Below are positions 3,174-61,700 of a stretch of 64,000 bases of DNA, in pieces; position 1 is the first letter of the stretch, and the number at the start of each line of letters is the position of its first letter. A model generated the notes under the pieces. The model did not search any database, had not been told where the DNA came from, and worked only from the letters and a program-made list of their open reading frames with translations. A program made the translations under genes and the position numbers. This stretch comes from an uncultured Alcaligenaceae bacterium (GTDB taxonomy: Bacteria; Planctomycetota; Planctomycetia; Gemmatales; Gemmataceae). Where the stretch lies: the NCBI GenBank assembly GCA_964423615.1, contig CAYRFQ010000011.1, forward strand, positions 84,548 through 148,547. The letters run 5' to 3'.

Positions 3174-4253
3174 CTATCTTGGAGCTTTCCAAAAAGCCAT
3201 CGAGATGTGCAAGAGGCTCCAATAGATGAAGTTGGACCCTTCAACGAGTTGGCTCAGGATGCCGACTCGATCCCACACATACACACGTAGGGCCATCAAG
3301 CTCAACACGATGCCGACAATAGAGATGTGGAGGACAATAAACCCTGTTGGCGTCCGGCGTAACCAAGTCCAGAGCGTAAACCGTTCGGGACGTGTTTCGT
3401 TGGCTAGTTGGTAAGAGACAAAGACCAACCATGCTCCCGCGTGAACAAGAATGATCAAGTTGAAAGCAGTCGAACCCACAATCATTCCGAATGAGAGCGT
3501 CAGGAAGATGATGCCATAGATCGTGGCCAACGGCTTGTGTTTGAGGAGAGCTTGATCGACCGAACCGTACGTTTGTATCGCTGCACGTCGTACGTTGACC
3601 AGAGCCAGGGCACACAATAGCGCTATACCCAGGCTTCCGATCATGTACCAATGCGAAGGAATTGTGTACAGGATTTCTTTATGTTTGATGCACATTCCGT
3701 GGATGACTTGACCAATCGCAAGTATGGCTACCAGAAACGTGATTGTGGCCCACCGAAGGGCGGGCAAGAATGTCTTTGTTTTTTCTCCATCCCCTGGAGC
3801 GTCTCCGTAGCGTTGATAGATATTCGATTGGTCGCGTAACTCGTGAACGAGAAAGTATCCATAGAAAAGTATTATGACGAAGGGATTACTCGATGCTCCC
3901 AGGAAGTACACAAAGAAACACAATCCAATGCCAATGAGGGTGAGCCAGCCAAGTCGCATGGCCGCACGTGGGTTCCGGACTCTGGAGGACGTGAACAGAA
4001 ATAACCACCCGATGATGAAGTGCGCCAAACCACAAGCACGCATGGTCACGGCGGCTGGTGATTCCATGAACCGTCTGGGCGGTTGCAGGAGATACTTTTC
4101 GAGCAGGTAGATGAGACAACCGATCGCAATCGCTGCCCAGGCGCAGGCGATGGCATAGACAAACTGTCTGACAGATCGTTTGTCCAATTCCTCTCGCCAT
4201 GTTCTGGCAATGGTGAACAGCGCCATCCTGCACTTCCCTTCCGTGGAATCCAA
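3174..4253 (-). CDS. Hypothetical polytopic integral membrane protein
   Basis: The 359-aa ORF has at least 8 hydrophobic helices. No catalytic motif was recognised. An alternative start lies at Met-10 (nt 4226). Confidence 0.5.
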   Translation of the reverse strand: MDSTEGKCRMALFTIARTWREELDKRSVRQFVYAIACAWAAIAIGCLIYLLEKYLLQPPRRFMESPAAVTMRACGLAHFIIGWLFLFTSSRVRNPRAAMRLGWLTLIGIGLCFFVYFLGASSNPFVIILFYGYFLVHELRDQSNIYQRYGDAPGDGEKTKTFLPALRWATITFLVAILAIGQVIHGMCIKHKEILYTIPSHWYMIGSLGIALLCALALVNVRRAAIQTYGSVDQALLKHKPLATIYGIIFLTLSFGMIVGSTAFNLIILVHAGAWLVFVSYQLANETRPERFTLWTWLRRTPTGFIVLHISIVGIVLSLMALRVYVWDRVGILSQLVEGSNFIYWSLLHISMAFWKAPR

Positions 4254-4371
4254 ACCAAAATGTAGAGAAAACCGGCTGGATTATAACGACTCGTCAGGAT
4301 AAGAAAAGTCGCCTTGAAGCACCTCGGGTAGTATTTTCTAACGTTTTTGTAAAATCTTACCTCACTCTGTA

Positions 4372-4884
4372 ATGTCTCCACAAAACACACACAATGACGA
4401 CGATTCGGGAAAAAATGTCCTTCGAGGAATTCAGGAAAAGATGGGCATAATTCCACACGTGTTTCGGGCCATGAACGCGTGTCCCGAAGTGGTGGAAGCC
4501 ACCTTATTGTTTGAAGAAGGTACGAAATCCTATCTCGATCCCAAGTTGTGGGAACTCGCTTATCTCAAAGCCAGTTCTCTGAATGGTTGCCAACCGTGTG
4601 TGAACTACCACGCCAAGAAAGGAAAACAGTCTGGACTGACTCCAGAGCAACTACAAGCTGTTGAAACTGGTGGATCAATGGAGTCTTTCGACGACCTGGA
4701 ACAAGGTGTCTTACGGTTTGTCGAACAATGGATCGTCGGAGGTTCGGTGGATTCTGAGTTAGTCCAGAGATTGTGTAGCGAGCTAGGAGAGAGTGGCCTG
4801 ACGGCGTTGGCCGCGACAATTTCTTTGGCGACATGGATTAACCAATTTACCAAAGTTGCCGAGATCCTCCGTCGAAGTCGCTGA
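4372..4884 (+). CDS. Carboxymuconolactone decarboxylase / AhpD-like family protein
   Basis: At 170 aa, with the motif ...LNGCQPCVNYH... (CxxC plus His), it matches the AhpD/CMD core and size. Confidence 0.55.
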   Translation: MSPQNTHNDDDSGKNVLRGIQEKMGIIPHVFRAMNACPEVVEATLLFEEGTKSYLDPKLWELAYLKASSLNGCQPCVNYHAKKGKQSGLTPEQLQAVETGGSMESFDDLEQGVLRFVEQWIVGGSVDSELVQRLCSELGESGLTALAATISLATWINQFTKVAEILRRSR

Positions 4885-5022
4885 TTCCTTCTGACTTCTC
4901 CGCCCCTCCCTTGTTTTGCTTTTTCCCATCTGTTACTTGTCTTGTGCATAGCCGTTCACGGATCGAACTGCTTTCTCCTTTGCGACTGCCACGATTGCCT
5001 TTCTAACAATTCGAAGAAAGGA

Positions 5023-7464
5023 ATGTATATGAACGCATGGATGCGTTTATTCCTTCTATCGGCATCGTTACTGTGCTGCCTCGGAACTTGCTACGCCCAA
5101 CAAGCTCCTCAGAAATTCCCCGTACGCGAACATCAACACGTTGATCTACTTCCCAAACAGGCCATCGCTCGCGTGGGTACGACACGTCTGCGACACAGTG
5201 CCGATTTGTTATCCGTTGTCCACTCTGTGGACGGTCGATTCATCGCTACGGTTGGAAAGGACTTTCGAGTGTGTGTCTGGGACGGTCGTCAATGGCATCT
5301 CGTCTGCGAGATCGCCGAGGCGAGAACGAATATTCATTCGGTGGCGCTCTCACCAGATGGAAATTATCTCGCAATTGGAACCGCAAACACGACGAAATCA
5401 CGGGACAGGCACGTCCGCGTCTATTCGCTGCCGTCAGGGAAACTTGTGTGGAAACACCAAGCGGATAGTTGGGTGATCACGACTCACCTTGCGTTTTCCG
5501 CCGATAACTCCGCGTTGGCTGCCTATGGTTTTGGCCAACTGTGTCGATGGGACACCAAGACTGGGCGGAAGTTAGGTTCGTTGAGGTGGGAGCAAGATGG
5601 TGGAACCGTGGCCATCTCGGCAGACCATCGGTTGATAGCCCATGACAACTCGCCAAGCTCGACCACCATCATCCTGAGAGACGCAAACTCCGGGAAAAAA
5701 GTCGGGAGGCTCGGATCGCACGACAATGTGATCTATACTTTTGCTTTCTCTCCGGACGGAAAGCGTTTGTTCTCCAGTTCATCCATTGGACCTGTGTTAG
5801 TGTGGGACGTGACGAAACAAACGATATGTCGGAAAATCTCCTCCGTCGGGGCGTCAAGTTTCGGATTCTCTGCCGATAGCCAGTTGGTGAGCATTCTGGA
5901 TGTAGGCGGGAGAGTATCGATCTGGAATCTCGCCACCAAGAAACAACTCTCGAAGTGGGCTCAGCGAGAGTTGTCAGCTCCCCTGGGCATCTCGGCAGCA
6001 GCCTTGTGTTCGGAGGGGAAGCAGTTGGCCGTTATCAAAACGGGTTCGCAAGTACTTTGGATGTATGACGTCCCAACAGGGAATCGGCTTTCTCCTCCAC
6101 GGAGCCATAATGGTCCGATCCGGTCGGTGGCTTTCTCTCCCCTCTCGACAACGGTTGCCGTCAGTTCGACCACGTTCGAATCCGCATTTCAGCCTCAGCA
6201 CGAACTCGCTCTATGGAACGCACAAAATGGAAAGCTCGAAAGGCCTCTCGAAAATCCCCCGATGACGTACTCGCGTGTCTTCGTGGATGTCATTCCGAAC
6301 ACGTTCATTGGCTCGACTTCTACTGGTTCGACACCAATTCTTTTCGATTGGAAGAATAACAAAAAGCTGGAATCTCCGTGGCAATCGAAGCCCCGACCAG
6401 ACCACAGTTCCACAGTCCCCCTCCCGGTTGCGGTTTCTCCTGGAGGTCTCGTTGCGTTTGCTTGTCACGACGACACCCTTCAAATCTGGAACTTAAAAGA
6501 CCGACGGCTTGTGGTGAAGTGCCCCAGTTTTTTACCCACCATCGGTTCGTTAGATTTCTCTCCCGATGGGCAAGAACTCGCCGTCTGTGGGGAGAATGGT
6601 GTAGTCTTGTGGAACTGGCAGTCAGGTGGTTGTTCTCCGATCTACCAAACGCCGAAGGCGGACCTCGTTCGGTATTCCGGGGACGGGCAAAGGGTGGCGA
6701 TCTTGGTTCGAGGGGACAGTTCACGAATAGCCCTTTGGAATCGGCAAACGCGACAACTCCGAGAGCGTTTCCTCGACTTGCCGATCGTTGGCGACTTGGC
6801 CTTTGCTCCCGATGGCAAAACGTTGGCTGTTGCTACGGCTGCAAAAGCCGATACTCTCACTCCGGAGTTGAGAATCTACGAAGTCGCCAGTGGCCAAATT
6901 CGCAGTTCCTTTCGGGGGCACACCGGGCTGATCAGCTGTCTGGCCTTTTCTCGGGATGGAACGCGACTGGCATCTGGTAGCGAGGATACAACGACCTTGA
7001 TTTGGAACGTGAGTCCATCGTCGGGGGCAAATCAAAAACGAAAACCGTTGACCGCCATCCGATTCGAGAAGTTATGGTCGCTTCTCAAATCTGAGAATGC
7101 CGGGAAGGCCTACGGGGCTATGCGAGTGTTGGTCAGTCATGGTCGACAGGCCGAAGGCCTCATCACCCAGAAACTCACTGAGGCAGTGACCATTACGCCT
7201 ACAGAAATTGATCGAACGATACGGCTTCTTGATCACAAAAGATACGCCTATCGAGAACGAGCGATGATTCGTCTCGTCCACCTTGGTCGAAATGCCATTC
7301 CGCAACTCCAAGAAGCGCTCGCCAAAGAAACATCACGCGAACTCCGAGAACGCATCGACACGTTGTTGGTGCGGATCCGGGAGAAGCCCCTGGAAGGAGA
7401 TCAACTTCGGACGACGCGGGTGAACGAAGTTCTCGATTGGATCAGGCGGTTGTCCAAGCCTTAG
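5023..7464 (+). CDS. Secreted WD40 β-propeller protein with conserved ~140-aa C-terminal α-helical module
   Basis: The ORF is 4942..7464, and the likely start is Met-28 (MYMNAWMRLFLLSASLLCCLGTCYAQQ, a signal peptide). It contains many WD repeats (e.g. VAFSPDG..., ...IWNL..., LAFSRDGTRLASGSEDTTTLIWNV). Its C-terminal segment is paralogous to the C-terminus of the 14834..17539 protein. Confidence 0.75.
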   Translation: MYMNAWMRLFLLSASLLCCLGTCYAQQAPQKFPVREHQHVDLLPKQAIARVGTTRLRHSADLLSVVHSVDGRFIATVGKDFRVCVWDGRQWHLVCEIAEARTNIHSVALSPDGNYLAIGTANTTKSRDRHVRVYSLPSGKLVWKHQADSWVITTHLAFSADNSALAAYGFGQLCRWDTKTGRKLGSLRWEQDGGTVAISADHRLIAHDNSPSSTTIILRDANSGKKVGRLGSHDNVIYTFAFSPDGKRLFSSSSIGPVLVWDVTKQTICRKISSVGASSFGFSADSQLVSILDVGGRVSIWNLATKKQLSKWAQRELSAPLGISAAALCSEGKQLAVIKTGSQVLWMYDVPTGNRLSPPRSHNGPIRSVAFSPLSTTVAVSSTTFESAFQPQHELALWNAQNGKLERPLENPPMTYSRVFVDVIPNTFIGSTSTGSTPILFDWKNNKKLESPWQSKPRPDHSSTVPLPVAVSPGGLVAFACHDDTLQIWNLKDRRLVVKCPSFLPTIGSLDFSPDGQELAVCGENGVVLWNWQSGGCSPIYQTPKADLVRYSGDGQRVAILVRGDSSRIALWNRQTRQLRERFLDLPIVGDLAFAPDGKTLAVATAAKADTLTPELRIYEVASGQIRSSFRGHTGLISCLAFSRDGTRLASGSEDTTTLIWNVSPSSGANQKRKPLTAIRFEKLWSLLKSENAGKAYGAMRVLVSHGRQAEGLITQKLTEAVTITPTEIDRTIRLLDHKRYAYRERAMIRLVHLGRNAIPQLQEALAKETSRELRERIDTLLVRIREKPLEGDQLRTTRVNEVLDWIRRLSKP

Positions 7465-7558
7465 TCGTCCGTTTCAAAAATAACGTCCCGGTTAGTCTGG
7501 CCCTCGGATCAATCGTCTTGAACGGCTTGATTTTGGGGTTGGACTCGTCATTGGACCG

Positions 7559-8878
7559 CTATTTCGGACGTCGTCGACTATCGGGAATGAGACCTTCTCC
7601 AATCATCCGTCGAAATAGCACGTACTGAATGATCGAGTAATATCCCTCTTGTTTTTCTGGAACGACTACCATGGGAACAAGGCACATCTCGTCGCTTGTT
7701 TGTTCGCCGAACGTCACACGTTTGGGAGGGCTATTCGGGTTGAACGGGTTATTGTCGGAATTATCGTAGACCGCGTTGATCGTGAGCTTTGTTCCCTTCG
7801 GGAGCTTAAACGGCTTTTGAAAAATGTATTGGTCTTGCCAATCGAAGTCCCAATCTGGAATGCGGACGAGGACTTTCTTCTTCGCTTCCCCAGGTAGCTT
7901 GGCAAGCAGTTCAATCTTTCGCCCAATCAAGTGCATATGGGGAAAAGTCCCATAAACAGTCACGTCTGTTGGAAGTGTGGCGTGGGTGGTGATTTTGTAG
8001 TCGTTTTTGCCCGCTGGGATGTCGATGTGTCGGGTCCCAATGGTGAACGGAAGCAGCGCTTTTCCTTTCTTCTTGGTGAAATAAATTCCAACCTCCGATT
8101 GATCTTTCTCGACCTTTCCAGTCGGGTGATAGTGCATCTGCAAGATGAGATCGGCTCCACCAGGGAGCCACCACCCAACGTTGCCAGGCCAACGCCGAGG
8201 GCTCACGCCCGGTGCCCATCCGCCGAGAATCCCGATGGCAGGGACTCCAGGTCCCCCGAAGGATGTGTATCCTGGGCCTTTTTCTTGCTTGTCCCGTTCG
8301 CGTCCGATGCCGGATTTGTCGAGAAAGAACACCGAGTGATGAACGACCCTCCGGTTTCCAGGATGAAACTCGACTGCGGCAACCGTTCGATCTTCTTTCA
8401 AACCGGTCGGAATTGCAAAACACCGATAGACATCGGGACCATCGGCCGGAATGGTGAAAGGCTCTGGCATTCGCAAGATCAAATCGGGCTGGCCGAGGAC
8501 CCAACCTTTTTTGAATTTGGGAATGGCAGGCATGTCCTTGGGATCACCTTTCGGCGCTCCGGCTTTGGCCCATCGGACCAAAACATCCAATTCTTCGTTA
8601 GACAACCCGCGTTCATCTCGAAACTGTATGTGGCCACGTTCCGCCTTCCAAGGCGGCATTCGTTTGTTCTGGGTGACTTCGACAAGGAAATTCGCACGCT
8701 TCGCCGCGTCTTTGTAACTCAAAAGTGAGAACGGAGCTACTTCGCCAGGCCGGTGGCAACGAGCGCAATGCTGGAACAAAATCGGAGCAACGTCCTTACA
8801 GTAAGTTACTTGGCTTGCGTAGGCAGTGGAACCAGTAGTTATCGTCAAAAGAACGGTAAAAAGATAGTGTTTCTTCAT
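7559..8878 (-). CDS. PSCyt1-type heme-c domain fused to copper type II ascorbate-dependent monooxygenase-like (PHM/DBH-like) domain
   Basis: A signal peptide (MKKHYLFTVLLTITTGSTAYAS) is followed by CARCHRPGEVAPFSLLSY (a CxxCH heme site typical of Planctomycete cytochrome C). Downstream, VVHHSVFF, QMHYHP, FPHMHLIG and DEMCLV occur with roughly 65-85-aa spacing. That spacing matches the CuH (H,H,H) and CuM (HxH...M) ligand sets of PHM-like monooxygenases. The start is trimmed to Met-16. Confidence 0.55.
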   Translation of the reverse strand: MKKHYLFTVLLTITTGSTAYASQVTYCKDVAPILFQHCARCHRPGEVAPFSLLSYKDAAKRANFLVEVTQNKRMPPWKAERGHIQFRDERGLSNEELDVLVRWAKAGAPKGDPKDMPAIPKFKKGWVLGQPDLILRMPEPFTIPADGPDVYRCFAIPTGLKEDRTVAAVEFHPGNRRVVHHSVFFLDKSGIGRERDKQEKGPGYTSFGGPGVPAIGILGGWAPGVSPRRWPGNVGWWLPGGADLILQMHYHPTGKVEKDQSEVGIYFTKKKGKALLPFTIGTRHIDIPAGKNDYKITTHATLPTDVTVYGTFPHMHLIGRKIELLAKLPGEAKKKVLVRIPDWDFDWQDQYIFQKPFKLPKGTKLTINAVYDNSDNNPFNPNSPPKRVTFGEQTSDEMCLVPMVVVPEKQEGYYSIIQYVLFRRMIGEGLIPDSRRRPK

Positions 8879-8938
8879 GGGGCGACTCTCCTTCTCAACA
8901 GGGATCCGTTTTCTGGGGTGCATCTTGCGTTGTTCACT

Positions 8939-9538
8939 CTATTTACTTTGTCCAGGGAGAGCAGGAAGTGGACAACCAAAAGCCTTGGTCCGCTGGACTC
9001 GGGGTTGTTTCCCTGCAATGACGGCATCGAGGGCCTCGCGAAGGTCGCGTTTGCGAGGTTCCCTTCGACGTCGACCGTTGAGGAGATACCAGTCATCGAT
9101 CCGCCCGCCGTAGAAGAGCTCTCCTCGGTTGTTCAACAATGCGGCTTCCGGAACGCGTTTCGCCCGTGTGTGCTGCGCGAAAGTTTGTGCCGGGTCGAGA
9201 AGCACAGGAAAGGTGAACTTGTATTCTTTCGCGTGCTTACGAATATGTTTGGCAGAGGCTTCGGGGTCAGAAATGATACCGTAGAAAACCACTTGTTGTT
9301 TCGAGTATTTCTCGGCAATACGATTCATCTCAGGAACATACAGTTTCGACACCGGACACTCTGTGTCCATAAAGAACAGCACCACAAACTTGGAATCTTT
9401 CCACTCCTTCTCGGTGCGAAGTTGTCCATTCACATCGCGTAGCTGGAATTCGAGCTGTGTAGTCGGTTCCGCTTGACCAGAGATCTCTTGGACGGAAAGA
9501 AAGAAGAGCATGTAAGTAAGTAGACCCGCAGAAAACAT
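8939..9538 (-). CDS. Thioredoxin-fold redoxin (AhpC/TSA / thiol-disulfide oxidoreductase-like), secreted
   Basis: Residues FVVLFFMDTECPVSKLYVPEM contain a CxxS/thioredoxin-like active-site context. A signal-like N-terminus begins at the internal Met (MFSAGLLTYMLFFLSVQEISGQA), which I verified at nt 9538. The longer 281-aa ORF has a low-complexity N-terminal extension. Confidence 0.5.
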   Translation of the reverse strand: MFSAGLLTYMLFFLSVQEISGQAEPTTQLEFQLRDVNGQLRTEKEWKDSKFVVLFFMDTECPVSKLYVPEMNRIAEKYSKQQVVFYGIISDPEASAKHIRKHAKEYKFTFPVLLDPAQTFAQHTRAKRVPEAALLNNRGELFYGGRIDDWYLLNGRRRREPRKRDLREALDAVIAGKQPRVQRTKAFGCPLPALPGQSK

Positions 9539-10062
9539 GAGCAAGGACTCCTTTGAATTGTTCCCGGTCTTGAGTTTCAGTAAGGGAAGCGAAAAAAAGC
9601 CTCTCAGGAGTATCACCACCAAGATTGTACCAAAGGAGTTGCAAGGAGGGGATTTTTGCCCCGTGGAGGTGTGTTTGTTGGAAACCGGAGGACTGTGGTT
9701 GAAGAAGTCGTCGGTCCGAGCCTTTGTCAACTGCCCCCGTACTGCTTTGTTGGGAATCTCGAGGAAAATTTGTGGGGAGGACACGTGGTCTTGTGCTTTC
9801 TGGGCTTCCCGAGATGTATCTCCAAGAGGATGCCCAGAAATTCCGGTTTACTCTGCGTTCGGCTATAATAATGCCCTGTCTATTCCAGTTCGAGAATAAG
9901 GTGTTTTGGTCCTGGATGATAAGTTAGTGGTCGTGAAGGTGCGCTTTTGGTTATGGTGGTGTATGCCGAGGTCACGAACAAAGATGATCAATTCGATTCC
10001 AATCTCAGGCCTGAAGGCGCACCCATAACTTTCCTTACATTCGTATCGGAACTCCCAATCTC

Positions 10063-11709
10063 ATGCTTCGTTGCCAGGTCACTTTTAATCGAGAAACCCA
10101 ACACATCCACCACAAAGAAGGTGCGTTGGAATTTGGTCGCGGCCCCAAGCGTCCGCCCGTTCCTCGTTGTATGATTCCTGATCCTTACGTTTCCAAGGAT
10201 CACGTACGAGTCCATCCGCTCGGCAACGACACCATCATGGTGGAAAACCTGAGCCGCAAACAACCGATCTGGCTAACGTCCGAGGAAGCCATTGAACCTG
10301 GCCAATCGTTGAAACTCTCGCTCCCCACGAGGTTGCACCTGGGAGATTCGGTCATCGAGATCGAGTCCGACGAATATGACACGGTCGACCGCGATTTCCT
10401 CCAGACGATCGCTGCGCCCGTGGTGCGACTCGAACGACATGGCGATAATCCCAGTCTCCTTCGTCTTGGCGAGGTTCCGTCCGCCGAAACGCTTGTGCAT
10501 TGGTTCGAGGCCGTCATCGCGGTCCAGCGAGCCGCCGCCGGGAGTCCGGAGTTCTATCAACAAACGGCTCAAGCTCTCGTCGACCTTGTCGGAATGGATC
10601 GGGGACTCGTTTTGCTTCGTCATGGCGATGCCTGGAAAGTCGTCGCCAGGGCGTTTCTCGACGAGGGAGGTCCTGGCAGAGAGTTTAGCCAAACGATCTT
10701 GCAACAAGTCATCGAGGAACGCCGGACGTTCTACCAATCGGTCTCCAAGATCGCTCAAACGGACAGCTTGCAAGGCGTCCAGGCAGTCGTGGCGTCGCCC
10801 ATCTTCGACGCTCGGGAGGCCGTGGTCGGCGTCGTCTACGGGTCCCGGAGTCGCGGGGTCATCCAACGGGACATTGGGACGCTCGATGCTCAGGTCGTTC
10901 AAGTCTTGGCGGCGGCAGTCGGCAGCGGCCTTGAGAGGATGGAACGAGAACAGGAAGCCAACCGTATGCGTGTCGCCATGGAAGCGACCGCGCACGCCGA
11001 TCAGGCCAAGAGTCAATTTTTAGCGAACATGAGCCACGAACTTCGGACTCCTCTCAACGCCATCATAGGCTACAGCGAAATGCTCCAGGAAGAAGTTGCC
11101 GATGATGGGCAGGATGCCTACATGCCGGACTTACAGAAAATCCACAGTTCTGCCAAACATTTACTCGCGCTGATCAACGACATACTCGACCTTTCCAAGA
11201 TCGAAGCGGGGAAGATGGAGCTTTCGCTCGAAACGTTCGCTCTCGAACGTTTGGTCGAAGACGTCCGAGCCACCATCGAACCCCTTGCGGCCAAAAACTC
11301 CAACACGTTCCAGGTCGAGACGCAACCGAACCTCGGAGAGATGAATGCCGACGTCACACGGGTTCGACAGTGTTTGCTTAACTTGATTAGCAACGCGTGT
11401 AAATTCACGTCCGAAGGAATCATTCGGTTCGAGGTTGGCCTCGTTGCCAACGGCGGACAACGATGGGTGCAATTCGTCATCCAGGATACCGGCATCGGGA
11501 TGACCCCCGAACAACTCCAAAGGCTGTTCAAACGATTCGGGCAGGCCGACGCGTCCACGACTCGAAAATATGGCGGGACGGGGCTCGGACTTGTGATCAC
11601 GCGGCATCTCGCTCAGATGATGGGCGGGGATGTCACGGTACAAAGCGAAATCGGGAAGGGCTCGACGTTTACGATGTATATTCCGGTGAAGGTGCAACAG
11701 GCGAAATAG
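10063..11709 (+). CDS. FHA–GAF–histidine kinase (sensor kinase with N-terminal forkhead-associated domain)
   Basis: The N-terminus has an FHA signature (FGRGP...[11 protein letters not shown]...N). The middle region is GAF-like. The C-terminus has HisKA ([23 protein letters not shown]) and HATPase_c ([12 protein letters not shown]...[13 protein letters not shown]...GKGSTFT). Confidence 0.8.
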
Positions 11710-11892
11710 TGGTGCGGAGAAAGGACAAGTACCTGGCCATTCTGACCAGGTTACGATGACCTTGCCCTTCGGCCAAAAGAAAAAACGGTTCGGATGGATT
11801 CGTCGTCGTGGGTGAAAGGCGAATAGCCTGACCTTCCTAATTGCTGGGCTGACACTTCATTGACTGCACAGGTCTCAATGACTTCCTCCCGG

Positions 11893-12810
11893 TTATTCCT
11901 TCAATGTTGGCAACGTCTTTCCCTGAGCGGCTAATATCTGCGCCAGATTATCGATCGACAATCTCGGGTCGTCGAGCAATAAATTTCGCATCTCCGTCCG
12001 AACATAATCGGAGAGATTGTCGCCGGTCCAGCCTCGCTCGATCATCTTTTTGCTGACCGTTTCTTTCCACTGTTCACTAAGGGCGTCAGTGCGGCGGGAT
12101 ATAGTCCCTTCGTGGATTTCGAGAATCCCAGCGACGTCGCGTTGACTGAGGTTATATCGCAGACGGAGGCCGAGGATCAACAATTCCTTGTCGCCGATCG
12201 ATTGCAGCCATTCGCGAGCCGCTTCGCAAAAGACGTCGCGCCAGCGGTCAGGTTGGGGAGCCGGAATGGGGATGATGTCGTCTTCGGGAAGGGCCTGCTC
12301 GCCCTTCTTGTTGCGTAACTTCGATAGGTGATGATTCTGGAAGACCCGGATGAGCCACGGGATCAACGGACGGAGCCCGTCGTAGCGTTTCAAGACGGGA
12401 AGTCCTTGAGGGGTATCGGGCGGTATGAACAAGTTGCTCCAAAATTCGAGAACAGAACTCTCCTGGCGTTCTTCGTTGCGAGGATACAACCAAGCAGCCC
12501 GAGAACGTAAGGCATCCATTAAAAGGCAGTCGCTTCGGTAGGCTCTTGCAGCGAAAAGGTAATCCCAAGCCGGTTCGTTGCCTTCCAGGCAAGCCGCCGT
12601 GATGAACCAATCGAGCGGGTAGAGGTTGTCCAGGTAAAAGTCCCAGGTGATCGATTCGTCCTTGCTTTTGGACTGGTACAACTGGAAGGTGCGTTGCAGA
12701 TGGCCTTCGCACACATCGGGTGGCAAACTGACCGCTGGTAGTTGCATGCGGCAGAACGAGTACAACAGATCGACCCGTGCCTGGTCGGGGGCTCCAATGA
12801 CGTTTGACAT
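11893..12810 (-). CDS. ECF-type RNA polymerase sigma factor with long N-terminal extension
   Basis: A region-2.4-like segment (PLIPWLIRVFQNHHLSKLRNKKGE) and a region-4 helix-turn-helix (ELLILGLRLRYNLSQRDVAGILEIHEGTISRRTDAL) are present. About 140 aa precede the σ2 region. Confidence 0.55.
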   Translation of the reverse strand: MSNVIGAPDQARVDLLYSFCRMQLPAVSLPPDVCEGHLQRTFQLYQSKSKDESITWDFYLDNLYPLDWFITAACLEGNEPAWDYLFAARAYRSDCLLMDALRSRAAWLYPRNEERQESSVLEFWSNLFIPPDTPQGLPVLKRYDGLRPLIPWLIRVFQNHHLSKLRNKKGEQALPEDDIIPIPAPQPDRWRDVFCEAAREWLQSIGDKELLILGLRLRYNLSQRDVAGILEIHEGTISRRTDALSEQWKETVSKKMIERGWTGDNLSDYVRTEMRNLLLDDPRLSIDNLAQILAAQGKTLPTLKE

Positions 12811-12900
12811 TCGTTGAGGATAGCGTTCCAGTGTGATCCTGGCCAGTGATTTCCGACTAGAGAAATCCCCGGCACCCGCAGGCGTTCCTCTGCAGCAACA

Positions 12901-14394
12901 TTACTCCGGCACAAACACGATGATCTCGACTCGTGCCGTCGGCAGCTTTTTCTTCTCCGGAACAGGGGTTGGCCCCACTCCGCAGCCCAGAGCTTTGACG
13001 CGACGATTCGACCAGAACCAGTATCCCATGCGGTGAATTTTGTGATGGTCTTTCACAAAACCCATCACGGCTTTCGCTTGTTCCTCGGTCAGGCGTTTCG
13101 CGAACTCCGGTTTCTGTTTTGGATCGGCAAAGACGGCGATGACGACTTCGGATTTCTTTTCTTTGTGAGTGTTCAACCAATCCCCTGCCGCACGCAAGTT
13201 CCGCTGGCCCATGCGAGTGATCGTCGCGCGATCGTCCTCGAAGATTTGATAAATCGGATACACAATCCGGTGTCTTTTGCAATTCGGACGAACCAGCTCC
13301 TTGGTCAAGTCCACGACGTAGTTACGCACGATCGGCAGGCGTTTGACGGCGTCCGAATTTTGCTTCACGGAGCTGACCATTTGGCGAACATCTTTGAGTG
13401 ACTTGACCGTCTCCTGGTAGGCCGTTTTGTCTTTGAGGAATTTACCAAGCGAGCCTTGGCCCTCTTCAATGTTGGCCAGAGCGAGTTGGATTCTGTTGAG
13501 CGACGATGTGAAGTCTTTGTAGAGTTTTTCGTCCGTCAAAAGCTTGCCGAGCGTCCCTTTGCCGTTTTGGAGATTATCGATCGTCACGTCAGCCTTGGCC
13601 AAAATCGTGTTCAGTTTGTCGGTGGCCTTCCGCAGGTCGGCGGTCGCCTTTCCGACCGGTCCGTCTCCTTCGTTGTAAGCGACGACAGCTTTGTTGGCTT
13701 CGGTGATGACCTTGTCGAGTTTATCGGTGGTCTGTTTGAGTTCCATGGCCACCGAGCCAATTGGTCCTTTGCCGGTGTTGTACTCCCGGAGGGCCTGGTC
13801 GGCACGGTCGACGACGGTCACAAGTTTTTTCGTTGCCTGGGAGAGATCCTTGGCGGCGCTGCCAATTGGTCCCTTTCCCTGCTCGTAGTTTTCGGTGGCC
13901 CGATCGACACGATCGACGATTCGGATGAGTTTTTCGCTGACCTGACTCAGGTTGCCCGTTGTTGTCGAAAGGTTGGCAAACATTCCCTCCTGGGGAGAGT
14001 TCGGTAAGAGGGCGTTTTCTCCGATGGCTTCGGCGGATTTGCCATTAACGATCCGGATGACGTTCGCGGACATAGGACCGTTGCTGGTGATTTGGGCATG
14101 GGAGCCCTTTCGGATGATTTTGCGAAACCGCCCCTTGAGGTGCAGGACCAAAACCACATGTCCTGGCTCTTCCAATTGGACCTCCGTCACTTCCCCAGCA
14201 TCGACGCCTTGGACTTCGACTCGGGTTCCGACCTCGACCCCCGATACGTCAGGGAAGCTCGCGCGGAGGCGGAAGGCATTTCCGAGCCAATCGCGACTTC
14301 CGACCAGGAACAGCCCGACCGAACCGAGTGCCAAGGTGACCAGGACCACGAGTCCCAAAACCGTTGCTTGCCAAGGGGTGAGTGATCGAGACAC
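12901..14394 (-). CDS. MCE/MlaD-family protein fused to C-terminal OmpA-like peptidoglycan-binding domain
   Basis: An N-terminal TM helix (LGLVVLVTLALGSVGLFLVG) is followed by an Mce domain (ASFPDVSGVEVGTRVEVQGVDAGEVTEV). Five ~28-34-aa helical repeats follow (YEQGKGPIGS..., YNTGKGPIGS..., YNEGDGPVGK..., NGKGTLGK..., EGQGSLGK...). The C-terminus resembles OmpA_C (...RLTEEQAKAV..., NRRVKAL..., RVEIIVF). Confidence 0.65.
   Translation of the reverse strand: MSRSLTPWQATVLGLVVLVTLALGSVGLFLVGSRDWLGNAFRLRASFPDVSGVEVGTRVEVQGVDAGEVTEVQLEEPGHVVLVLHLKGRFRKIIRKGSHAQITSNGPMSANVIRIVNGKSAEAIGENALLPNSPQEGMFANLSTTTGNLSQVSEKLIRIVDRVDRATENYEQGKGPIGSAAKDLSQATKKLVTVVDRADQALREYNTGKGPIGSVAMELKQTTDKLDKVITEANKAVVAYNEGDGPVGKATADLRKATDKLNTILAKADVTIDNLQNGKGTLGKLLTDEKLYKDFTSSLNRIQLALANIEEGQGSLGKFLKDKTAYQETVKSLKDVRQMVSSVKQNSDAVKRLPIVRNYVVDLTKELVRPNCKRHRIVYPIYQIFEDDRATITRMGQRNLRAAGDWLNTHKEKKSEVVIAVFADPKQKPEFAKRLTEEQAKAVMGFVKDHHKIHRMGYWFWSNRRVKALGCGVGPTPVPEKKKLPTARVEIIVFVPE
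13400..13950 (-). repeat. Intragenic tandem coding repeats (~28-34 codons ×5) within the MCE gene
   Basis: The G(K/D)GP(I/V)G(S/K) motif recurs in the translated protein, which implies periodic nucleotide repeats. The coordinates are approximate. Confidence 0.45.
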
Positions 14395-14833
14395 AATGAA
14401 GCTCCCTTGTTTGGAGAATTAGAACGGCCAACAAGCGTCGCTCCATTATAGGATCGATAATCGCTCGGGGGAATTGGTCGGAGAGTTTACCAAGAAGAAG
14501 AGAAAAGTCTGCTGTCTAGCTATGGTACAGAGGAGGAAATATCTCTCATCATGCCCTCTACAGCTTTACCAGATTCTCAAGGCATGCACAAGCCGGGCAG
14601 ACAGAGGTGGTGATTCTTAGGGTGTGCCTCTGGGTTTTGAAATTCTGTGTTCGTTGTAGGCACAAGTGCGCCATGTGGGTCCACGATTGCCCGGCAAATC
14701 CAAGTTCCACAATTCAGAGGAGGACGAGATTCTTTTGGACCTTCCAGTGATTGTTTTCAGGTGTGATGAGCAAGGCGTGGCGAAGCGAGGGAACACCAAC
14801 AAACCTCGGTCGTTGAGCGTTCCCAGGCCGAAA

Positions 14834-17539
14834 TCACGACGTTTGTGACTCGGTTCTCAATCGTAACCGAGCGAGTGCCCCCTTGGCGTCGTTGGTCAAC
14901 GGTGCACCGGGTGCTCCCTCGGCGAGGGTCGAGAGTAACTGGCGAGCTTCTTCGTTTCCGATCCATTCGAGGATTTCCACCCCACGCATGTCCGCCAACC
15001 GAGTGGGAGTCACGACAGGACGACGGGCCTCTCGCAACAACTTCGTAATCCGCGTTCGGAGTTCTCTTGAACTCGTCTTCTCCAATTTGGGTTGAAGATA
15101 CTCGATGGCTTGCGTCCCAAGTTTTTTGAGTTGTAGCGTCGCCGTCTCGCGAATCTTGTATCGGTTGCTGTCAAGTTGCTCGATCCAACGAAGTATATCT
15201 TTCTCGGTGACGGCGTTTCCATCGGCCGGTCGAAGGGTCTTCTTCAAGTGAGCCAACGCGACGTCGGGGTGAGCGACTAACTTCCCAACGGCTTCATGCG
15301 CCGCAGTCGCATTGTCGGCTTGGAGGGCGTTGGTAAGGCGTTCGATTTCTGCTTTCGTCAATTCCTTCTTCCTGGATGTGCCGTATTTTCGTTGGCCGGT
15401 CAAGTCCCAGAACAAAATGGTCGTGTCGTAGCTGCCCGTTGCCAGAACTCGACAGTCGGGGGAGAAAGCGACGCTGGAGACCATGCCTCTGTGGCCATGG
15501 AACATCGATCGCCGCTTCCCCGTTGCCGCTTCCCAGACGTGGATGTACGCCAGATATCCAGTCGAGGACGAAGAGGTGTAGCTCGTCGCCACTACAAAGC
15601 GTCCATCGGGAGAGAACGCCACGTTTTGATGACTGGAACTGGAACTCTCGAGGTCTCGGATTTTGCTTCCGTTGCTGGCATCGTACACGGCCAACTGGTT
15701 TTTCTCATTGTCCAGGATGACGAGGTTGCCGTCGGGCGAGAAGGCCGGGGCTTGGGTGCTGCTAGAATTTCGGTCTATGCGGAAGAGTTCTTTTCGCTTC
15801 GTCAAGTCCCAAACGGCAACGCTGGATGTCGAGCGTCCCGTTTGTCCGTCGTAGGTTCTCCACGAGAGAGCCAACCTTTTGTTGTTCGGGGAGAAACCCA
15901 TCTGGCCGGATTGGATGCCGCCGTTCCACCGATTAATCACCTTTTCGATCACCTTGATCCGAGCGACCTCCTCGCCAGAAAGAGTGTTCCAGACGCTCAC
16001 CATTCCAGGGTAGAGGAAGCAACCGACGCGAGACCCATCCTGGGAGATGGCTGGGGAATTCGCACTCGACTGAGAATTCGAATCGAAGTCGAAGAGGACT
16101 CGGTTTGCGTCGAGGTCCCAAAATTGAACGGTTCGATTGCTGTAAGAGCTCACGGTGGCCATGTACTTGCCGTTCACCGAGAACCTGGGGGTTTGAAAGG
16201 CATTGGCGTTTGGATTCGGACGATATCCGCTGGGATACGCCGAATCGAAATCGACTCGTTGGCGACGAAGGGGTTTGCGCGACTTGACGTCCCAGGAGCA
16301 TACGTAGCCGTATTGATCGACGGATCGGAGTGTTCGTCCTTTGGACCCGAAAGCCAAGGCACTGACGGTGTGATAATGGCCGCTGAGAGGGGTGAACACT
16401 TTTCCGGTCAGGACGTCCCAAACGCACAGGACTTGTTGGTTGCGGCCATAACCCAAGATTTTCCCGTCTTTGCGGAACATGACGCCTGTTTGGAAGCATA
16501 ACGGCCCCGGTTTCGTGCGCACCCGAGTTTGTTTCTTGCGGTCCCAAATCTGGACATCGCCGTTATTCCCAGCCGCCGCCAAGTAACGTCCATCTGCCGA
16601 ATATTTCAAGAAGGTTCCCAACCCTCGGCGACCCGCAAAGCGTCGCTTGAGTTTACCGGTTTTCACGTCGTACAAGCTCAGTGTGGACGAACCGTTGATC
16701 AATGCCAGTTCTTCTCCGTCGGGCGAAAAGGCGACCGTATTGAGGACAGTCGAGTCGGTTTCGATTCGTCGGATTTCTTTGCTCGTGGAAACGTCCCAAA
16801 GCTGAAGTGTGACGGGTGGTTGTGTCGGGCGATTTTGGTAGGTTCCCCAGGAAAGGATGATCTTTCCGTCGGGAGAGAAAATGCCGCGAGGTTGGTAGTC
16901 TTGCATCACTTGAAGAGTCCCGACGGATTTCCCGTCGGTCACATTCCAGACGTAGATCGTGTTGCCTCGGTTGTACCTTCCGGGTGCGGCTAGGAGTAGT
17001 TTGTTGTCGGGAGAGAATTCGACGGTCGACCAGGACGAACTCGTCCGCACGGCGGGACGGAAATAGCGGATTCTTCTTCCCGTTTTGGTGTCGTAGATTT
17101 GGACTTGGTTGTAGCCACCCACGGCGAGCTTTTTGCCATCCGGAGACAAAGCCGATCCGTAGGAGCTTGTGTTTACAGGAATTCTTCGGATTTGCTTTCC
17201 GGTGGCAACTTCGATGATAGCCGTGCCGGAATTAGTGGTCACCGCTACGGTCTTTCCATCGCCCGACGGAATCATCCGTTGCACGTACTGGTCCAATCGA
17301 AACTCGACCGAGCCCAAGCGTCCGAGGGCTTCTTTCGGGAGGGCTGTTGGTGAAAGCGTGCTGTTCGACAACCTTCCACCTCCGCCCGGTTGCGGGTAGT
17401 AGGGCCCCCCTGGTCCGATTGGCCCGATCCCTGGCGGTGGAGGAATGTTTGGGATTTGAGGTTGGGCAACAGCGGAATAGTGGGTGGCAGGGAAGGCAAG
17501 CACTACCCACAAAAGGTACGTGCGAAGTTGGAAGCGCAT
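14834..17539 (-). CDS. Secreted WD40 β-propeller protein (Pro/Gly-rich linker) with conserved C-terminal α-helical module
   Basis: A signal peptide (MRFQLRTYLLWVVLAFPATHYSAVAQP) is followed by a PPPGIGPIGPGGPYYPQPGGGG linker and then more than 12 WD repeats (AFSPDG..., ...VWDL..., ...FWDL...). The ~180-aa C-terminus aligns with the C-terminus of the 5023..7464 protein. Confidence 0.75.
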   Translation of the reverse strand: MRFQLRTYLLWVVLAFPATHYSAVAQPQIPNIPPPPGIGPIGPGGPYYPQPGGGGRLSNSTLSPTALPKEALGRLGSVEFRLDQYVQRMIPSGDGKTVAVTTNSGTAIIEVATGKQIRRIPVNTSSYGSALSPDGKKLAVGGYNQVQIYDTKTGRRIRYFRPAVRTSSSWSTVEFSPDNKLLLAAPGRYNRGNTIYVWNVTDGKSVGTLQVMQDYQPRGIFSPDGKIILSWGTYQNRPTQPPVTLQLWDVSTSKEIRRIETDSTVLNTVAFSPDGEELALINGSSTLSLYDVKTGKLKRRFAGRRGLGTFLKYSADGRYLAAAGNNGDVQIWDRKKQTRVRTKPGPLCFQTGVMFRKDGKILGYGRNQQVLCVWDVLTGKVFTPLSGHYHTVSALAFGSKGRTLRSVDQYGYVCSWDVKSRKPLRRQRVDFDSAYPSGYRPNPNANAFQTPRFSVNGKYMATVSSYSNRTVQFWDLDANRVLFDFDSNSQSSANSPAISQDGSRVGCFLYPGMVSVWNTLSGEEVARIKVIEKVINRWNGGIQSGQMGFSPNNKRLALSWRTYDGQTGRSTSSVAVWDLTKRKELFRIDRNSSSTQAPAFSPDGNLVILDNEKNQLAVYDASNGSKIRDLESSSSSHQNVAFSPDGRFVVATSYTSSSSTGYLAYIHVWEAATGKRRSMFHGHRGMVSSVAFSPDCRVLATGSYDTTILFWDLTGQRKYGTSRKKELTKAEIERLTNALQADNATAAHEAVGKLVAHPDVALAHLKKTLRPADGNAVTEKDILRWIEQLDSNRYKIRETATLQLKKLGTQAIEYLQPKLEKTSSRELRTRITKLLREARRPVVTPTRLADMRGVEILEWIGNEEARQLLSTLAEGAPGAPLTNDAKGALARLRLRTESQTS

Positions 17540-18684
17540 ACCCAGATTCTCCGAAATCTAGCGGTAAGTCGATCTACGTGGTGAGAACGAAGCTCAGTTC
17601 GAGCTTTCTGACATCGTTCGGGTTCGTCGGAACAAAAGAAAAAGTCCGATTGAGGGAACGACGATTCCAGATAAACTTTGGTTTTTTGAGAAGTCTATTC
17701 GAAAAGTATGGTATCGCAAACGACGGCCGTTCGCCAGAGGAATGTGAGCTAAGGGCACCGCCCAATATCTTCGTTCGACGAGAATGGCCGGTTAGAGAAG
17801 TTGCGCTCTTCGGTCTGGATGAGCGAGCGATGGATCGACTGTGTCGATGATTTTCGTGTCCACCAGAGTTCGGGATGGGCTTGGCCGTGAAAACGAAACT
17901 GCTGGAGTCATTTTTGGAATGTTATTGAGAACTGCGTGACTACTTGAGCAGGCACGCTCGAAACGGAAAGTGCACAGGTGTTGTTTTTTTGTAGATGGTT
18001 AGGAAAATGCGTCGGTGCCTTTCGCAACTTAACGTTGGGAAACACGTTACCTATTGAGCACTGCGAGGGCAATGCAACGGTCGTTGATGACCTTTGACGT
18101 AAGACGACCGAAGCTCCGTAGCCTAGCCCTACCAAGAGACGAACGGCAAGATAAGAGAGTGCTTGCTACTTTTTCCAAAATCGAATGGAGTGACTAATCG
18201 AAATGGTTCTCTCGACAAAGCGGAGAGACTGGTTATAATTAAGGAGGAAGTGATAGCGTGAGGAGGCCGACTCGCAAAAGCCTGCCTCACGCTGGTGCTG
18301 AAAGGAAGAGTTTGGTGTGAATAGTGCGTTGTGAGGTATCTTGGATTGGGACTCGCATCCAATCCGCATCTGTAAGGAGCAACAGGCGTACCACTCGCTC
18401 GAATAGCCCTTTTGTTTTCTGCATTTGTTACATAAAGCCATTTCTGACAACAGTTTACATTTATATTTTTTCGGCATTCTGTCTTTCGATTTTTTCGTCA
18501 GAATCATTATTCTGCTCAGTCTGGATGATTCCGCAACAAGTGACTGAAGCGTAATTGCTCGAAATGCGCTATTTTGCATCTCCGTACAAAATCGTTCCAA
18601 TCGGCGCAAATTCCCCCAAACTTGCCCTTCCCGTCGCCATGAATAGATCAACGAAAAGATCACTTGGAACGGGTGGATTCTCCT

Positions 18685-58763: not shown

Positions 58764-61700
58764 ATGCATCGCGAGATTTCGCACATTGATGAAGTGTTCC
58801 ACCCCGAACACAACTACACGCTTTACCTCATGACGATCGTCATGGGTCTGCTGATCGGTGCGGACTTGTGGTTGATGTTTGCCGGTTGGCCCGTCGGGTG
58901 GACGAACACGGTTTCGCTCGGGCCGTTGTTGGGCGAATGGCGGATTGGATTGATCGCGGCGTTGTTGGGCGCGGCTCGAATCCTCTACACGTCGCTCGAA
59001 TCGCTTTCCGAGGGTCGCCTTGGGGCCGACATCGCCTTGGGGATTGCGTGCATCGCAGCGATCCTCCTTGGTGAACCGCTTGTGGCTGCCGAGATTGTCT
59101 TCATTGGTTTGTTCGGGGAGTGCCTCGAAAGTTTCACTTTCGAACGGACGCAGACCGCGATTCGACAACTGGTCGAAATTCAACCACGTCGGTGTTGGTT
59201 GCTCAAAGATGGTCAGGAAGTCCGTGTCTTCACCGACCAAATTGAAGTAGGCGACAAGGTGGTCGTCAAGCCGGGTGCGAGGATTCCCGCCGATGGCAAA
59301 GTCGTCGAGGGGCAATCCGCCGTCGACGCGAGCACCATCACTGGTGAATCGCTTCCGGTCGACAAGGGGCCTGGAGATCAAGTCCTGGCGGGTTCACTCA
59401 ATCAATTTGGAGCCCTCACGATCGACTGCGAACGGGTGTCGGACCAGACCGTTATCGGGCGAGTCGTCAAGCTCACTTCGGAAGCCCTCAAGAACAAAGC
59501 TGGTATCGAACGGCTGGCCGATCAGATGGCGAGGTACTTCTTGCCGGTCGTGTTGGGACTGGCGTTGCTCACGTTTTTCGGCGGCCTTGTGTACTACGGA
59601 ACGACGTGGTTTCGCGGTGCCGAAGCGGCAACGATCGACTGGAAAGTGACTTTCCGGATGGCGACGTATCCATCCCTGGCGGTATTGGTGGTTGCGTGTC
59701 CGTGTGGTTTGATCCTGGCGACCCCCGCGGCCGTCATCGCAGCCTTGGGGAGACTCGCCGGAACGGGCGTCTTGCTCAAGAGTGGTGGTGCGCTCGAACG
59801 CTTGGCGACGGTTTCGGGCTTTGCGTTCGACAAGACCGGAACGTTGACCGAGGGCAAACTCCATCTGGGCGATGTCGTTGGTCTCCACGGAACCGAAGAG
59901 AACCAACTGCTCTGGCTCGCAGCGACTGCCGAACAGAGAAGCGAACACCCGATCGCCCAAGTCATCCTGACGGAAGCCAAGAATCGCAACATTAGTTTCA
60001 CGGAAATTCAAGACTTCCAGGCCCATCCCGGTGCTGGAGTTTCGGCACGAACGTCCGAAGGCGACCTGGTGGTCGGTAACCGACGATTGATGGAGGACCG
60101 AGGAATCCACATCGGTCCGGAAGTCGAAGAGGCCCTCGAGAAGTTCGACGAAACCGGACAAACGACGCTCTTGGTGGCGCAAGACAATCAGATTCGTGGG
60201 GTCATTGGAGCTCGGGATGAACTGCGGGACGATGCGTTTTCGGTCCTCCAACAACTCCGTGAACTGGGCATTCTTGATTTGGCGTTGTTGACAGGGGATC
60301 GGAAGGCTGTTGCCAACACGATAGCCACTCGTCTCGAAATCGCCAACGTTCATGCTGAGGTGTTGCCCGCCCAAAAAGCGGAGATCGTTGGCCAGATGAA
60401 GCGATCGGCTGAGGAGCGGGTCAAAAGCCAGGCGGAAACGAAGAAGCTCTTTGCGGCTCCTGCTGAGGGGCGTGTCGCGATGGTTGGCGACGGAATCAAC
60501 GATGCTCCGGCTCTTGCGACGGCGGACGTGGGGTTGGCCATCGGTAGCGGGACGGATGTTGCTGCCGAAGCGGGCGACATCGTTTTCATGGGCGATCCAC
60601 TCAAGCCCTTGCCGTTGTTGGTGAAGCTATCGCGAGAGACCGTCTCGATCATCCGACAGAACATCCTCATTTTTGCGTTCGCGGTGAACCTTGTAGGGAT
60701 TGTGGTGACGGCGTGGTTGTGGCCGATACTGTGGCCGCTCTTTAAAGAGCTCGTTGGGTGGCAAGATTGGGAGGTGGAGTCGACGACGAGTGGTGTCATC
60801 GCGGCCGTAGTCTATCACCAATTCGGGTCGTTTGCCGTCCTGGTCAACTCGATGCGTCTGTTGTGGTTCGAACGAACTGGAGAAGGAACCGTTATTGGTC
60901 GGATTCGTTCGGGCTTCCAAGGCGTCGACCAATGGATCGAAAAGTATCTGAATGTTGGGGAAGCGATACACATCATTGCCCACCAGTGGAGGATTACCCT
61001 TCTCTGCGTGGGACTTTTGTCGGTTGGCGTGTATTTCCTGAGTGGGTTTACGCAAATCAATGCGGACGAAATCGGCATTGCCCAACGGTTCGGAAAAGTC
61101 GTGGACGAACTCAAGCCAGGATTACATTATCGTTGGCCGTGGCCAATCGAATCGGTGGCTCGCATTAAGCCCGACGCCATTCGGACTGTCACTTTGGGTT
61201 ATCGCGTGACGGACGAGAAGGGGACTCCGAAAAGTTTCTCCTGGAGTGCCAAGCACGCCGAACAGCAGCGGATTCCGGAGGAGTCGCAAACCATAACTGG
61301 GGATGGGTATTTCATAGAACTCCAAGTTGCCTTGCACTATCGGGTGAGCGATCCGAAGAGCTTTCTGTTCGAGGTTCGCGACCCGGAAGAAGTTATCCGA
61401 GCGGCTTTGGAAGCGACCCTGCGAGAAATCGCCTTGCAAAAGTCGGTTCCACAAATGTTGACCGAGCAGCGTGAAAAACTGGAGGAGCAAGCTCTCGCTG
61501 AGGTCACCCGGCGTTGCCTCGCTTACGGTCCGAGCGGGGTCGGTGTGGAGTTCGAGAGTCTTGCGTTGCGGGACTTACACCCACCTCCGGAAGTCGTTCC
61601 AGCATACATCAAACTTTCCAAGACGCTCGAAATCAACGAGAAGAAGATGATTCGGGCGAAGACCGAAAGTCAGCGAGCCATCGCACAAGCCCAAGCGGAC

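Follow-up and report, generated by a model that had tools for sequence, protein, structure and literature searches.

Introduction

Expanded families of proteins that join an extracytoplasmic function (ECF) sigma factor to WD40 repeats have been described in the Gemmataceae (PMC8567305, PMC11032199), and PMC8567305 cites the Gemmata-expanded ECF-WD40 proteins of Jogler et al. 2012. WD40-like extensions are also characteristic of the ECF57 group (PMC8999054). In planctomycetes, sigma domains are argued to have been duplicated and inserted before pre-existing genes, the products of which became C-terminal extensions (PMC7671368). The locus described here lies in a stretch of 64,000 nucleotides, hereafter the window, which comprises positions 84,548 to 148,547 of contig CAYRFQ010000011.1 in assembly GCA_964423615.1, named as an uncultured Alcaligenaceae bacterium and placed in the Gemmataceae by GTDB. 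Two genes of the window, A and B, encode exported-looking WD40 proteins with a shared C-terminal tail and converge on a stretch of redox, kinase, sigma-like and MlaD genes (Table 1).

A and B are very probably two independent members of a massively expanded Gemmataceae family of exported WD40-HEAT proteins, and they flank the redox/kinase/MlaD stretch by coincidence in a genome where such genes are very numerous. Each protein combines a predicted Sec-type signal peptide with about 640 amino acids of WD40 repeats, arranged as two tandem seven-bladed propellers, and a C-terminal alpha-solenoid of about 170 amino acids; the shared tail is the standard C-terminal domain of the family.

Domain organization of A and B

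The Pfam WD40 family (PF00400) scores 108.9 bits in A and 93.3 bits in B against a cut-off of 27, and several further propeller families exceed their Pfam cut-offs in both proteins, with matches along most of the length. Both N-termini resemble signal peptides: the n-region is positively charged, the hydrophobic stretch spans 10-13 residues, and there is a small-x-small motif (CYA in A, AVA in B); the sequences are MYMNAWMRLFLLSASLLCCLGTCYA followed by QQ in A and MRFQLRTYLLWVVLAFPATHYSAVA followed by QP in B. A hydropathy scan of the two proteins finds no further hydrophobic or membrane-type segment, and Pfam finds no match to Sigma70_r2 or Sigma70_r4 in either. A Pro/Gly-rich linker is present in B and absent from A.

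The full-length AlphaFold model of B, built from 76 homologs, has a pLDDT (predicted local distance difference test) of 87.6 and a pTM (predicted template modelling score) of 0.87. The model begins with a helix at residues 4-14, corresponding to the signal peptide, followed by disorder over residues 18-61, 53 beta strands within residues 71-712 and helices within residues 716-900. Its best Foldseek matches are double seven-bladed propellers, including 2ymu (E = 7e-36), Aip1 (1nr0) and proteins of the UTP/PWP2 type, the last of which likewise end in a helical domain. B is therefore predicted to consist of two seven-bladed WD40 propellers and a C-terminal helical domain, the propellers being called from the strand count and the Foldseek matches. 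The high pTM of the model hints that the HEAT domain is docked on the propeller.

The last 149 residues of A and the last 188 residues of B are 36% identical over 141 amino acids by BLASTP, with E = 8e-20, where a value above 0.01 would mean no significance. An E value this low identifies the similarity as real and far from a chance or compositional effect. Over their full lengths the two proteins are 25% identical (BLASTP, E = 4e-54), and the propeller region of A can be aligned end to end with the propellers of B. The preliminary description of this DNA, made from the sequence alone, had proposed two secreted WD40 proteins with a common tail at about 35% identity, and the open reading frames (ORFs), Pfam scores, N-termini and BLASTP alignment bear this out. 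A tblastn search of the window for the tail returns just these two copies.

By these identities, A and B are neither close paralogs nor each other's nearest relatives, and they do not form a special pair. B is about 36% identical, across 92% of its residues, to very many other proteins, against 25% for A, and a recent duplicate pair can be rejected. In an alignment of 48 family tails, the tail of B is 38% identical to that of A and 24-42% identical to the 46 others. Both proteins have orthologs in assembly GCA_964474955.1, at 52% identity for A (P0013) and 71% for B (P0152). A contig scan with protein A as query found no close relative.

The C-terminal HEAT module

The tail defines a very large family. 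An exhaustive profile search with the two-tail alignment as query, run against 1.84 billion cluster representatives at the 50% identity level, returned 19,492 clusters at E <= 1e-3, 13,749 at E <= 1e-10 and 77 at E <= 1e-30. A word-indexed homolog search with the same alignment came back empty; its index is too insensitive for this family, of which the exhaustive search gave thousands of members. Module position and copy number were examined in the best 150 matches, among which the matches cover the whole profile. The module ends no more than 25 residues from the C-terminus in 147 of these 150 proteins, and 52 of them carry at least two copies.

An alignment of 46 family modules and the two window tails was used to classify the domain. 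Pfam HEAT_2 is matched by 34 of the 48 members at E < 0.01 (best E = 1.1e-11) and HEAT_PBS by 10. Comparison of the module with itself by hhalign relates residues 4-49 to residues 54-100 (probability 92%, E = 6e-7), and the second unit is weakly related to the third (E = 0.0035); the HEAT-like unit is about 46 residues long. These member matches and the internal repeat identify the tail as a three-unit HEAT-repeat domain of about 170 residues, of the PBS-lyase/HEAT_2 type, with conserved motifs of its own. The AlphaFold model of the module contains nine helices at a pLDDT of 95.5 and forms an alpha-solenoid of stacked antiparallel helix pairs. Weak matches point in the same direction, to HEAT and alphaRep structures in a PDB sequence search with the tail and to the HEAT proteins CpcE, CpcF and NblB in NCBIfam. 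The consensus of the module includes ...LWADLAS.DA..AY.A...L...P..AV..L...L.P...IA.LIADLDS..F.VRE.A..ELE.LG..AEPALR.AL...PS.E.R.RIE.LL..L and continues as .....PE.LR..RAVEVLE.IGTPEAR..L..LA.GAP.A.LT.EA.AAL.RL.

The preliminary description had also taken the tail for an uncharacterised alpha-helical domain resembling HEAT or ARM repeats, which agrees with both the family matches and the fold. Neither Pfam nor NCBIfam holds a dedicated model for the module, and a literature search on Gemmata, HEAT repeats and WD40 found no paper that describes it.

The two copies in the window differ in length. The module of B is complete, and that of A ends at profile position 139-140 of 178. The ortholog of A ends likewise, covering profile positions 5-140, and since it stops at the identical point, the shortened module is a stable variant and not damage. 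A frameshift artefact as the source of the short tail is ruled out by this common end point and by the next gene, which follows 95 nucleotides downstream.

Lineage distribution and architectures

With the module consensus as query, a scan that covered each GTDB species by one genome confirmed at least 26 module loci; near-consensus copies are favoured by such a query, and the distribution is a lower bound. Among the matches listed, 17 loci are labelled Gemmataceae, 2 Fimbriiglobus and 2 Limnoglobus (including L. roseus PX52), and with these two Gemmataceae genera included the family accounts for 21 of the 26. Four further loci are labelled at other ranks of the Planctomycetota (3 Planctomycetota, 1 Planctomycetaceae). 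The remaining locus, L028 (CAZVZK010000004.1), is labelled 'uncultured Alcaligenaceae', but it carries a WD40-HEAT gene and other genes of Gemmataceae or planctomycete type and is probably mis-binned. The module is thus essentially confined to the Gemmataceae among the matches listed.

Several metagenome-assembled genomes (MAGs) appear two or three times among the loci listed, and a second copy lies in the flanks at five loci. Together with the roughly 14,000 clusters, these repeats suggest tens of module copies or more per genome. Adjoining separate copies occur at loci L012, L016 and L019.

The main architecture is a signal peptide, one or two propellers and one or two modules. Larger proteins repeat the propeller-module unit, up to 3,223 amino acids with four modules. 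The giant relatives P0006, P0002, P0003 and P0004 are built in this way, and the largest, P0006, has its four modules about 800 residues apart; this regular repetition suggests fused, tandemly duplicated genes.

A second architecture places sigma70_r2/r4 domains and one hydrophobic segment ahead of the propellers and the module, as in P0045, which has both Sigma70_r2 and Sigma70_r4. In a hydropathy scan of ten such sigma-fused relatives the single hydrophobic segment lies at residues ~250-270. Many homologs belong to this sigma-70-fused class, and for both A and B such fusions rank with the strongest full-length matches, sharing 27-32% identity across more than 85% of the query.

The module also occurs apart from WD40 repeats. 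Among P0085, P0083 and P0089 it stands alone behind a signal peptide, in proteins of 187 and 216 amino acids, or follows an alpha/alpha toroid resembling prenyltransferases and squalene cyclases. As these three proteins lack a WD40 partner, the module has no strict tie to WD40.

Comparison with described systems

The sigma-fused relatives are the known planctomycete ECF-WD40 proteins. ECF57-type ECF-WD40 fusions share with A and B homologous tandem propellers followed by the same HEAT module, and they come from the same lineage. The single hydrophobic segment of the fusions predicts that their propeller-HEAT unit lies outside the cytoplasm, as is also predicted for the signal-peptide forms A and B. 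Where the fusions carry the sigma2/sigma4 domains and the membrane-spanning segment, A and B carry a putative signal peptide, and without sigma2/sigma4 they cannot serve as transcription factors. A and B look like the free-standing type of gene that was captured by inserted sigma domains in the scheme of PMC7671368.

The known proteins with which the module itself can be compared are the HEAT_2 and PBS-lyase HEAT-like proteins (PF13646, PF03130), such as CpcE/CpcF, NblB, E. coli YibA and the designed alphaRep proteins. In contrast to these, the window module has a fixed three-unit architecture of about 170 amino acids with the motifs LW..L...DA, IADLDS..F..RE.A..EL..LG and LR..RAVEVLE.IGTPEAR. 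It further differs in being predicted periplasmic, joined to WD40 propellers and restricted to the Gemmataceae.

Eukaryotic small-subunit (SSU) processome proteins of the UTP/PWP2/WDR3 type, and Aip1, have a similar shape of two seven-bladed propellers and a helical domain (Foldseek E = 1e-27 to 1e-34). The likeness is architectural alone: identity is 13-17%, the compartment and the helical domain differ, and there is no sign of a common function.

Possible roles of the propeller-HEAT unit

HEAT and WD40 domains in general are interaction modules. For this reason, and because ECF sigma-WD40 fusions carry the propeller-HEAT unit as their extracytoplasmic extension, A and B may act as periplasmic scaffolds or sensors that bind proteins or ligands. 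The propellers would provide variable surfaces for binding and target recognition, and the conserved HEAT domain a constant protein-protein contact with the protein's own propeller, with another copy or with a common partner.

A more elaborate proposal is that free exported WD40-HEAT proteins pair through their HEAT domains with membrane-anchored ECF sigma-WD40-HEAT fusions and serve as co-sensors or periplasmic modulators. The module is highly conserved, is common to secreted and sigma-fused forms and varies least within proteins that diverge elsewhere; two-module tandem proteins and stand-alone modules behind a signal peptide would also fit module-module association. However, HEAT-HEAT association is putative, and the conservation would be explained equally well by an intramolecular propeller contact of the kind that the pTM of the full-length model hints at. 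The window contains no sigma-WD40 fusion gene, its only module copies being the tails of A and B. Such trans-acting pairing is improbable, and there is about as little to recommend the wider view that the module is a Gemmataceae-specific periplasmic association domain and the family a combinatorial extracytoplasmic sensing network instead of a set of independent binders.

Other lineage-restricted C-terminal domains steer exported proteins to an envelope site or a secretion route, and the module could be a sorting or anchoring domain of this kind. Its C-terminal position in nearly all of the top 150 matches and its confinement to one bacterial family, among the matches listed, would be expected of such a domain, as would its presence on signal-peptide proteins, occasionally with non-WD40 passengers such as the prenyltransferase-like toroid, and also alone. 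A HEAT solenoid of 170 residues is nonetheless unlike known sorting domains, about a third of the top matches (the 52 above) have internal and tandem copies, and the last and most conserved repeat is missing from A and its ortholog. In addition, the partner is nearly always WD40 and not diverse cargo, and no dedicated neighbouring machinery recurs. Sorting is thus very unlikely to be the function of the module.

Conservation of the neighbourhood

The preliminary description had suggested that the module could be an interaction tag linking the propellers to the ECF and FHA signalling genes; taken further, with the MlaD gene included, the whole stretch of 12.6 kb would be one functional island. 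The arrangement lends itself to this idea, as A and B converge on the stretch, B shares its strand with the MlaD-OmpA and sigma-like genes, and propeller-HEAT relatives are fused to ECF sigma factors. Gene order around the orthologs and around the other module loci, however, gives a different picture.

In the only related genome found, GCA_964474955.1, A and B have their orthologs on separate contigs, and the flanks of these orthologs on the side that would face the island are unrelated to it. The genes that come after the ortholog of B (L002), for a 506-aa protein and a CxxCH protein, do not resemble the MlaD-OmpA or sigma-like genes. The ortholog of A (L003) retains the upstream CMD/AhpD-like gene alone, at 60% identity; downstream of it are a 178-aa gene, ribosomal protein L28 and a partial 246-aa ORF whose sequence suggests a GTPase. 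The Cu-monooxygenase-like and redoxin genes are absent after the A ortholog on this contig.

All island proteins were also searched against the 26 module loci, and matches occur at L028 alone. There, positions 12233-14280 encode an MlaD-OmpA protein next to a protein homologous (E = 2e-89) to the 305-aa sigma-like protein, and a sigma-54 activator comes after the pair. The pair lies 3.8 kb from a WD40-HEAT gene, which is located upstream of it and is not an ortholog of B. The MlaD-OmpA and sigma-like genes are a conserved pair in its own right, and their proximity to a WD40-HEAT gene at L028 may be due to chance at such a gene density. No island gene is found near the other 25 loci.

Leaving aside the WD40-HEAT genes and their antisense shadow ORFs, all-against-all clustering of the flanking ORFs gave no family present in more than 4 of the 26 loci. 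The few flanking families that recur (DUF1559, DUF1501, sigma-54 activators and Uma2) are all generic, high-copy planctomycete families. A conserved gene order of the propeller, sigma-like, kinase, MlaD and redox genes was not encountered in GCA_964474955.1 or at the 26 loci.

Since more than 13,000 clusters contain the module and it is unlinked to this neighbourhood, a gap of 440 nucleotides separates B from the MlaD gene, and a predicted periplasmic module would not share a compartment with a sigma-like protein and a kinase that lack membrane segments and would be cytoplasmic, a functional island is very unlikely and is largely refuted by the gene order seen.

Weight of the evidence and significance

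Several points weigh against the assignment of A and B to an exported WD40-HEAT family whose members are independent of their surroundings. The signal peptides were called from sequence alone, through visual reading and hydropathy. A Pfam scan of the two window tails gives nothing above threshold: B reaches 20.8 bits for HEAT_2, weakly and below the cut-off of 27.7, and A has no HEAT match, so that the HEAT assignment rests on family members and fold. Ortholog synteny comes from a narrow sample, one related genome with contigs of 4.7 and 4.9 kb, and the 26 loci of the neighbourhood comparison are a selected sample, picked by similarity to the consensus. The arrangement at L028 leaves room for a loose association of the MlaD-OmpA and sigma-like pair with a propeller gene. 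The scaffold or sensor role is derived, by inference, from the domain types.

If A and B are routine members of the known Gemmataceae WD40 repertoire and the supposed island is a chance arrangement, this locus is of little consequence in itself. The useful result is a clear definition of the C-terminal HEAT module, a lineage-restricted domain found in about 14,000 clusters. In the absence of a Pfam or NCBIfam family model, the proteins that carry it are now named merely 'WD40 repeat protein'. Earlier publications already cover the expanded WD40 and ECF-WD40 repertoire, and what is new here is the lack of a dedicated model for the module, a modest annotation gap. A dedicated profile would improve the annotation of planctomycete genomes and would provide a defined handle on the still-obscure input side of ECF sigma-WD40 fusions.

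Genes and features of the window

Table 1. Features of genes A and B and of the genes between them, in window coordinates.
Feature	Position	Strand	Details and basis
Gene A, exported-looking WD40-HEAT protein	5023..7464	+	813 aa from the ATG at 5023; ORF and translation
Signal-peptide-like N-terminus of A	5023..5097	+	about 25 aa, ends in CYA before QQ; sequence reading
WD40 propeller region of A	5149..7032	+	residues ~43-670; Pfam propeller matches at residues 50-678
HEAT module of A	7033..7461	+	profile positions 2-139 of 178, last repeat missing; hmmsearch with family profile, E = 1.2e-40
Cu2_monoox_C-like protein with N-terminal CxxCH motif	7559-8923	-	Pfam
AhpC/redoxin	8939-9784	-	Pfam
GAF-HisKA-HATPase kinase	10063-11709	+	Pfam
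MlaD-OmpA and 305-aa sigma-like helix-turn-helix (HTH) gene pair	11893-14394	-	adjacent genes
MlaD protein with weak OmpA match	12901-14394	-	Pfam
Gene B, exported-looking WD40-HEAT protein	14834..17539	-	901 aa; ORF and translation
HEAT module of B	14843..15373	-	full length, profile positions 3-177, B residues 723-899
Tandem WD40 propellers of B	15404..17341	-	residues ~67-712; AlphaFold model and Foldseek
Pro/Gly-rich low-complexity linker of B, PQIPNIPPPPGIGPIGPGGPYYPQPGGGG	17359-17461	-	B residues ~27-60, from signal peptide to first propeller blade; disordered in model
Signal-peptide-like N-terminus of B	17465..17539	-	about 25 aa, ends in AVA before QP; sequence reading

The genes between A and B (Table 1) largely correspond to those named in the preliminary description, with some of the domain labels requiring revision. 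The redoxin stands as named. The protein described as joining PSCyt1 to a copper monooxygenase does contain the Cu2_monoox_C-like domain, but PSCyt1 was not detected in it; a CxxCH motif and weak haem-binding and cytochrome matches are found instead. In the histidine kinase the GAF domain is upheld and the FHA match is sub-threshold (E = 0.005, 17.7 bits against 20.7). The supposed ECF sigma factor retains its sigma-like character as a divergent HTH protein of 305 aa, which scores 35 bits for TIGR02937 against a cut-off of 42.9, matches Sigma70_r4 at E = 0.016 and lies under every sigma-70 family cut-off. For the Mce-OmpA protein, the MlaD part is clear and the OmpA part weak.

The CxxCH/Cu2_monoox_C-like gene follows the redoxin/AhpC-like gene after 15 nucleotides (7559-9784, - strand), and the two are probably a two-gene periplasmic redox unit. 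The public record gives shorter starts for these genes, 199 aa for the redoxin and 439 aa for the Cu2_monoox_C-like protein. Gene A, too, starts two codons further on in the public record, which gives a protein of 811 aa.

A near-identical public record, JBHJHG010000099.1 (Gemmataceae MAG, GCA_050331035.1), has 7 single-base differences from the window in 22,112 nucleotides, at window positions 10863, 14158, 15428, 15449, 15458, 23238 and 23247; those inside the B, kinase and MlaD genes are at third codon positions. At position 15428, the codon for Tyr704 of B (TAC) is TAG in JBHJHG010000099.1. This stop divides B in that record: a WD40 gene of 703 aa ends there, and the HEAT module falls in a separate ORF of 175 aa. 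The first 703 residues of B are annotated in the public record as 'WD40 repeat domain-containing protein'.

A promoter and terminator scan of positions 4200-18200 gave counts not above those of shuffled sequence and does not inform operon structure, and neither an Rfam nor a tRNA scan gave a match in the window. The remaining window is ordinary chromosome, with genes for UvrD, a lipopolysaccharide (LPS)/Kdo kinase, an HldE-like kinase, glycosyltransferases, a sulfatase and a P-type ATPase. The P-type ATPase (E1-E2_ATPase and Hydrolase; 58764-62009, + strand) carries a C-terminal SPFH/Band 7 domain, an unusual fusion. A further multidomain protein of 820 aa (54966-57428, + strand) combines an alpha/beta-hydrolase with PPDK_N and PEP-utilizers mobile domains.

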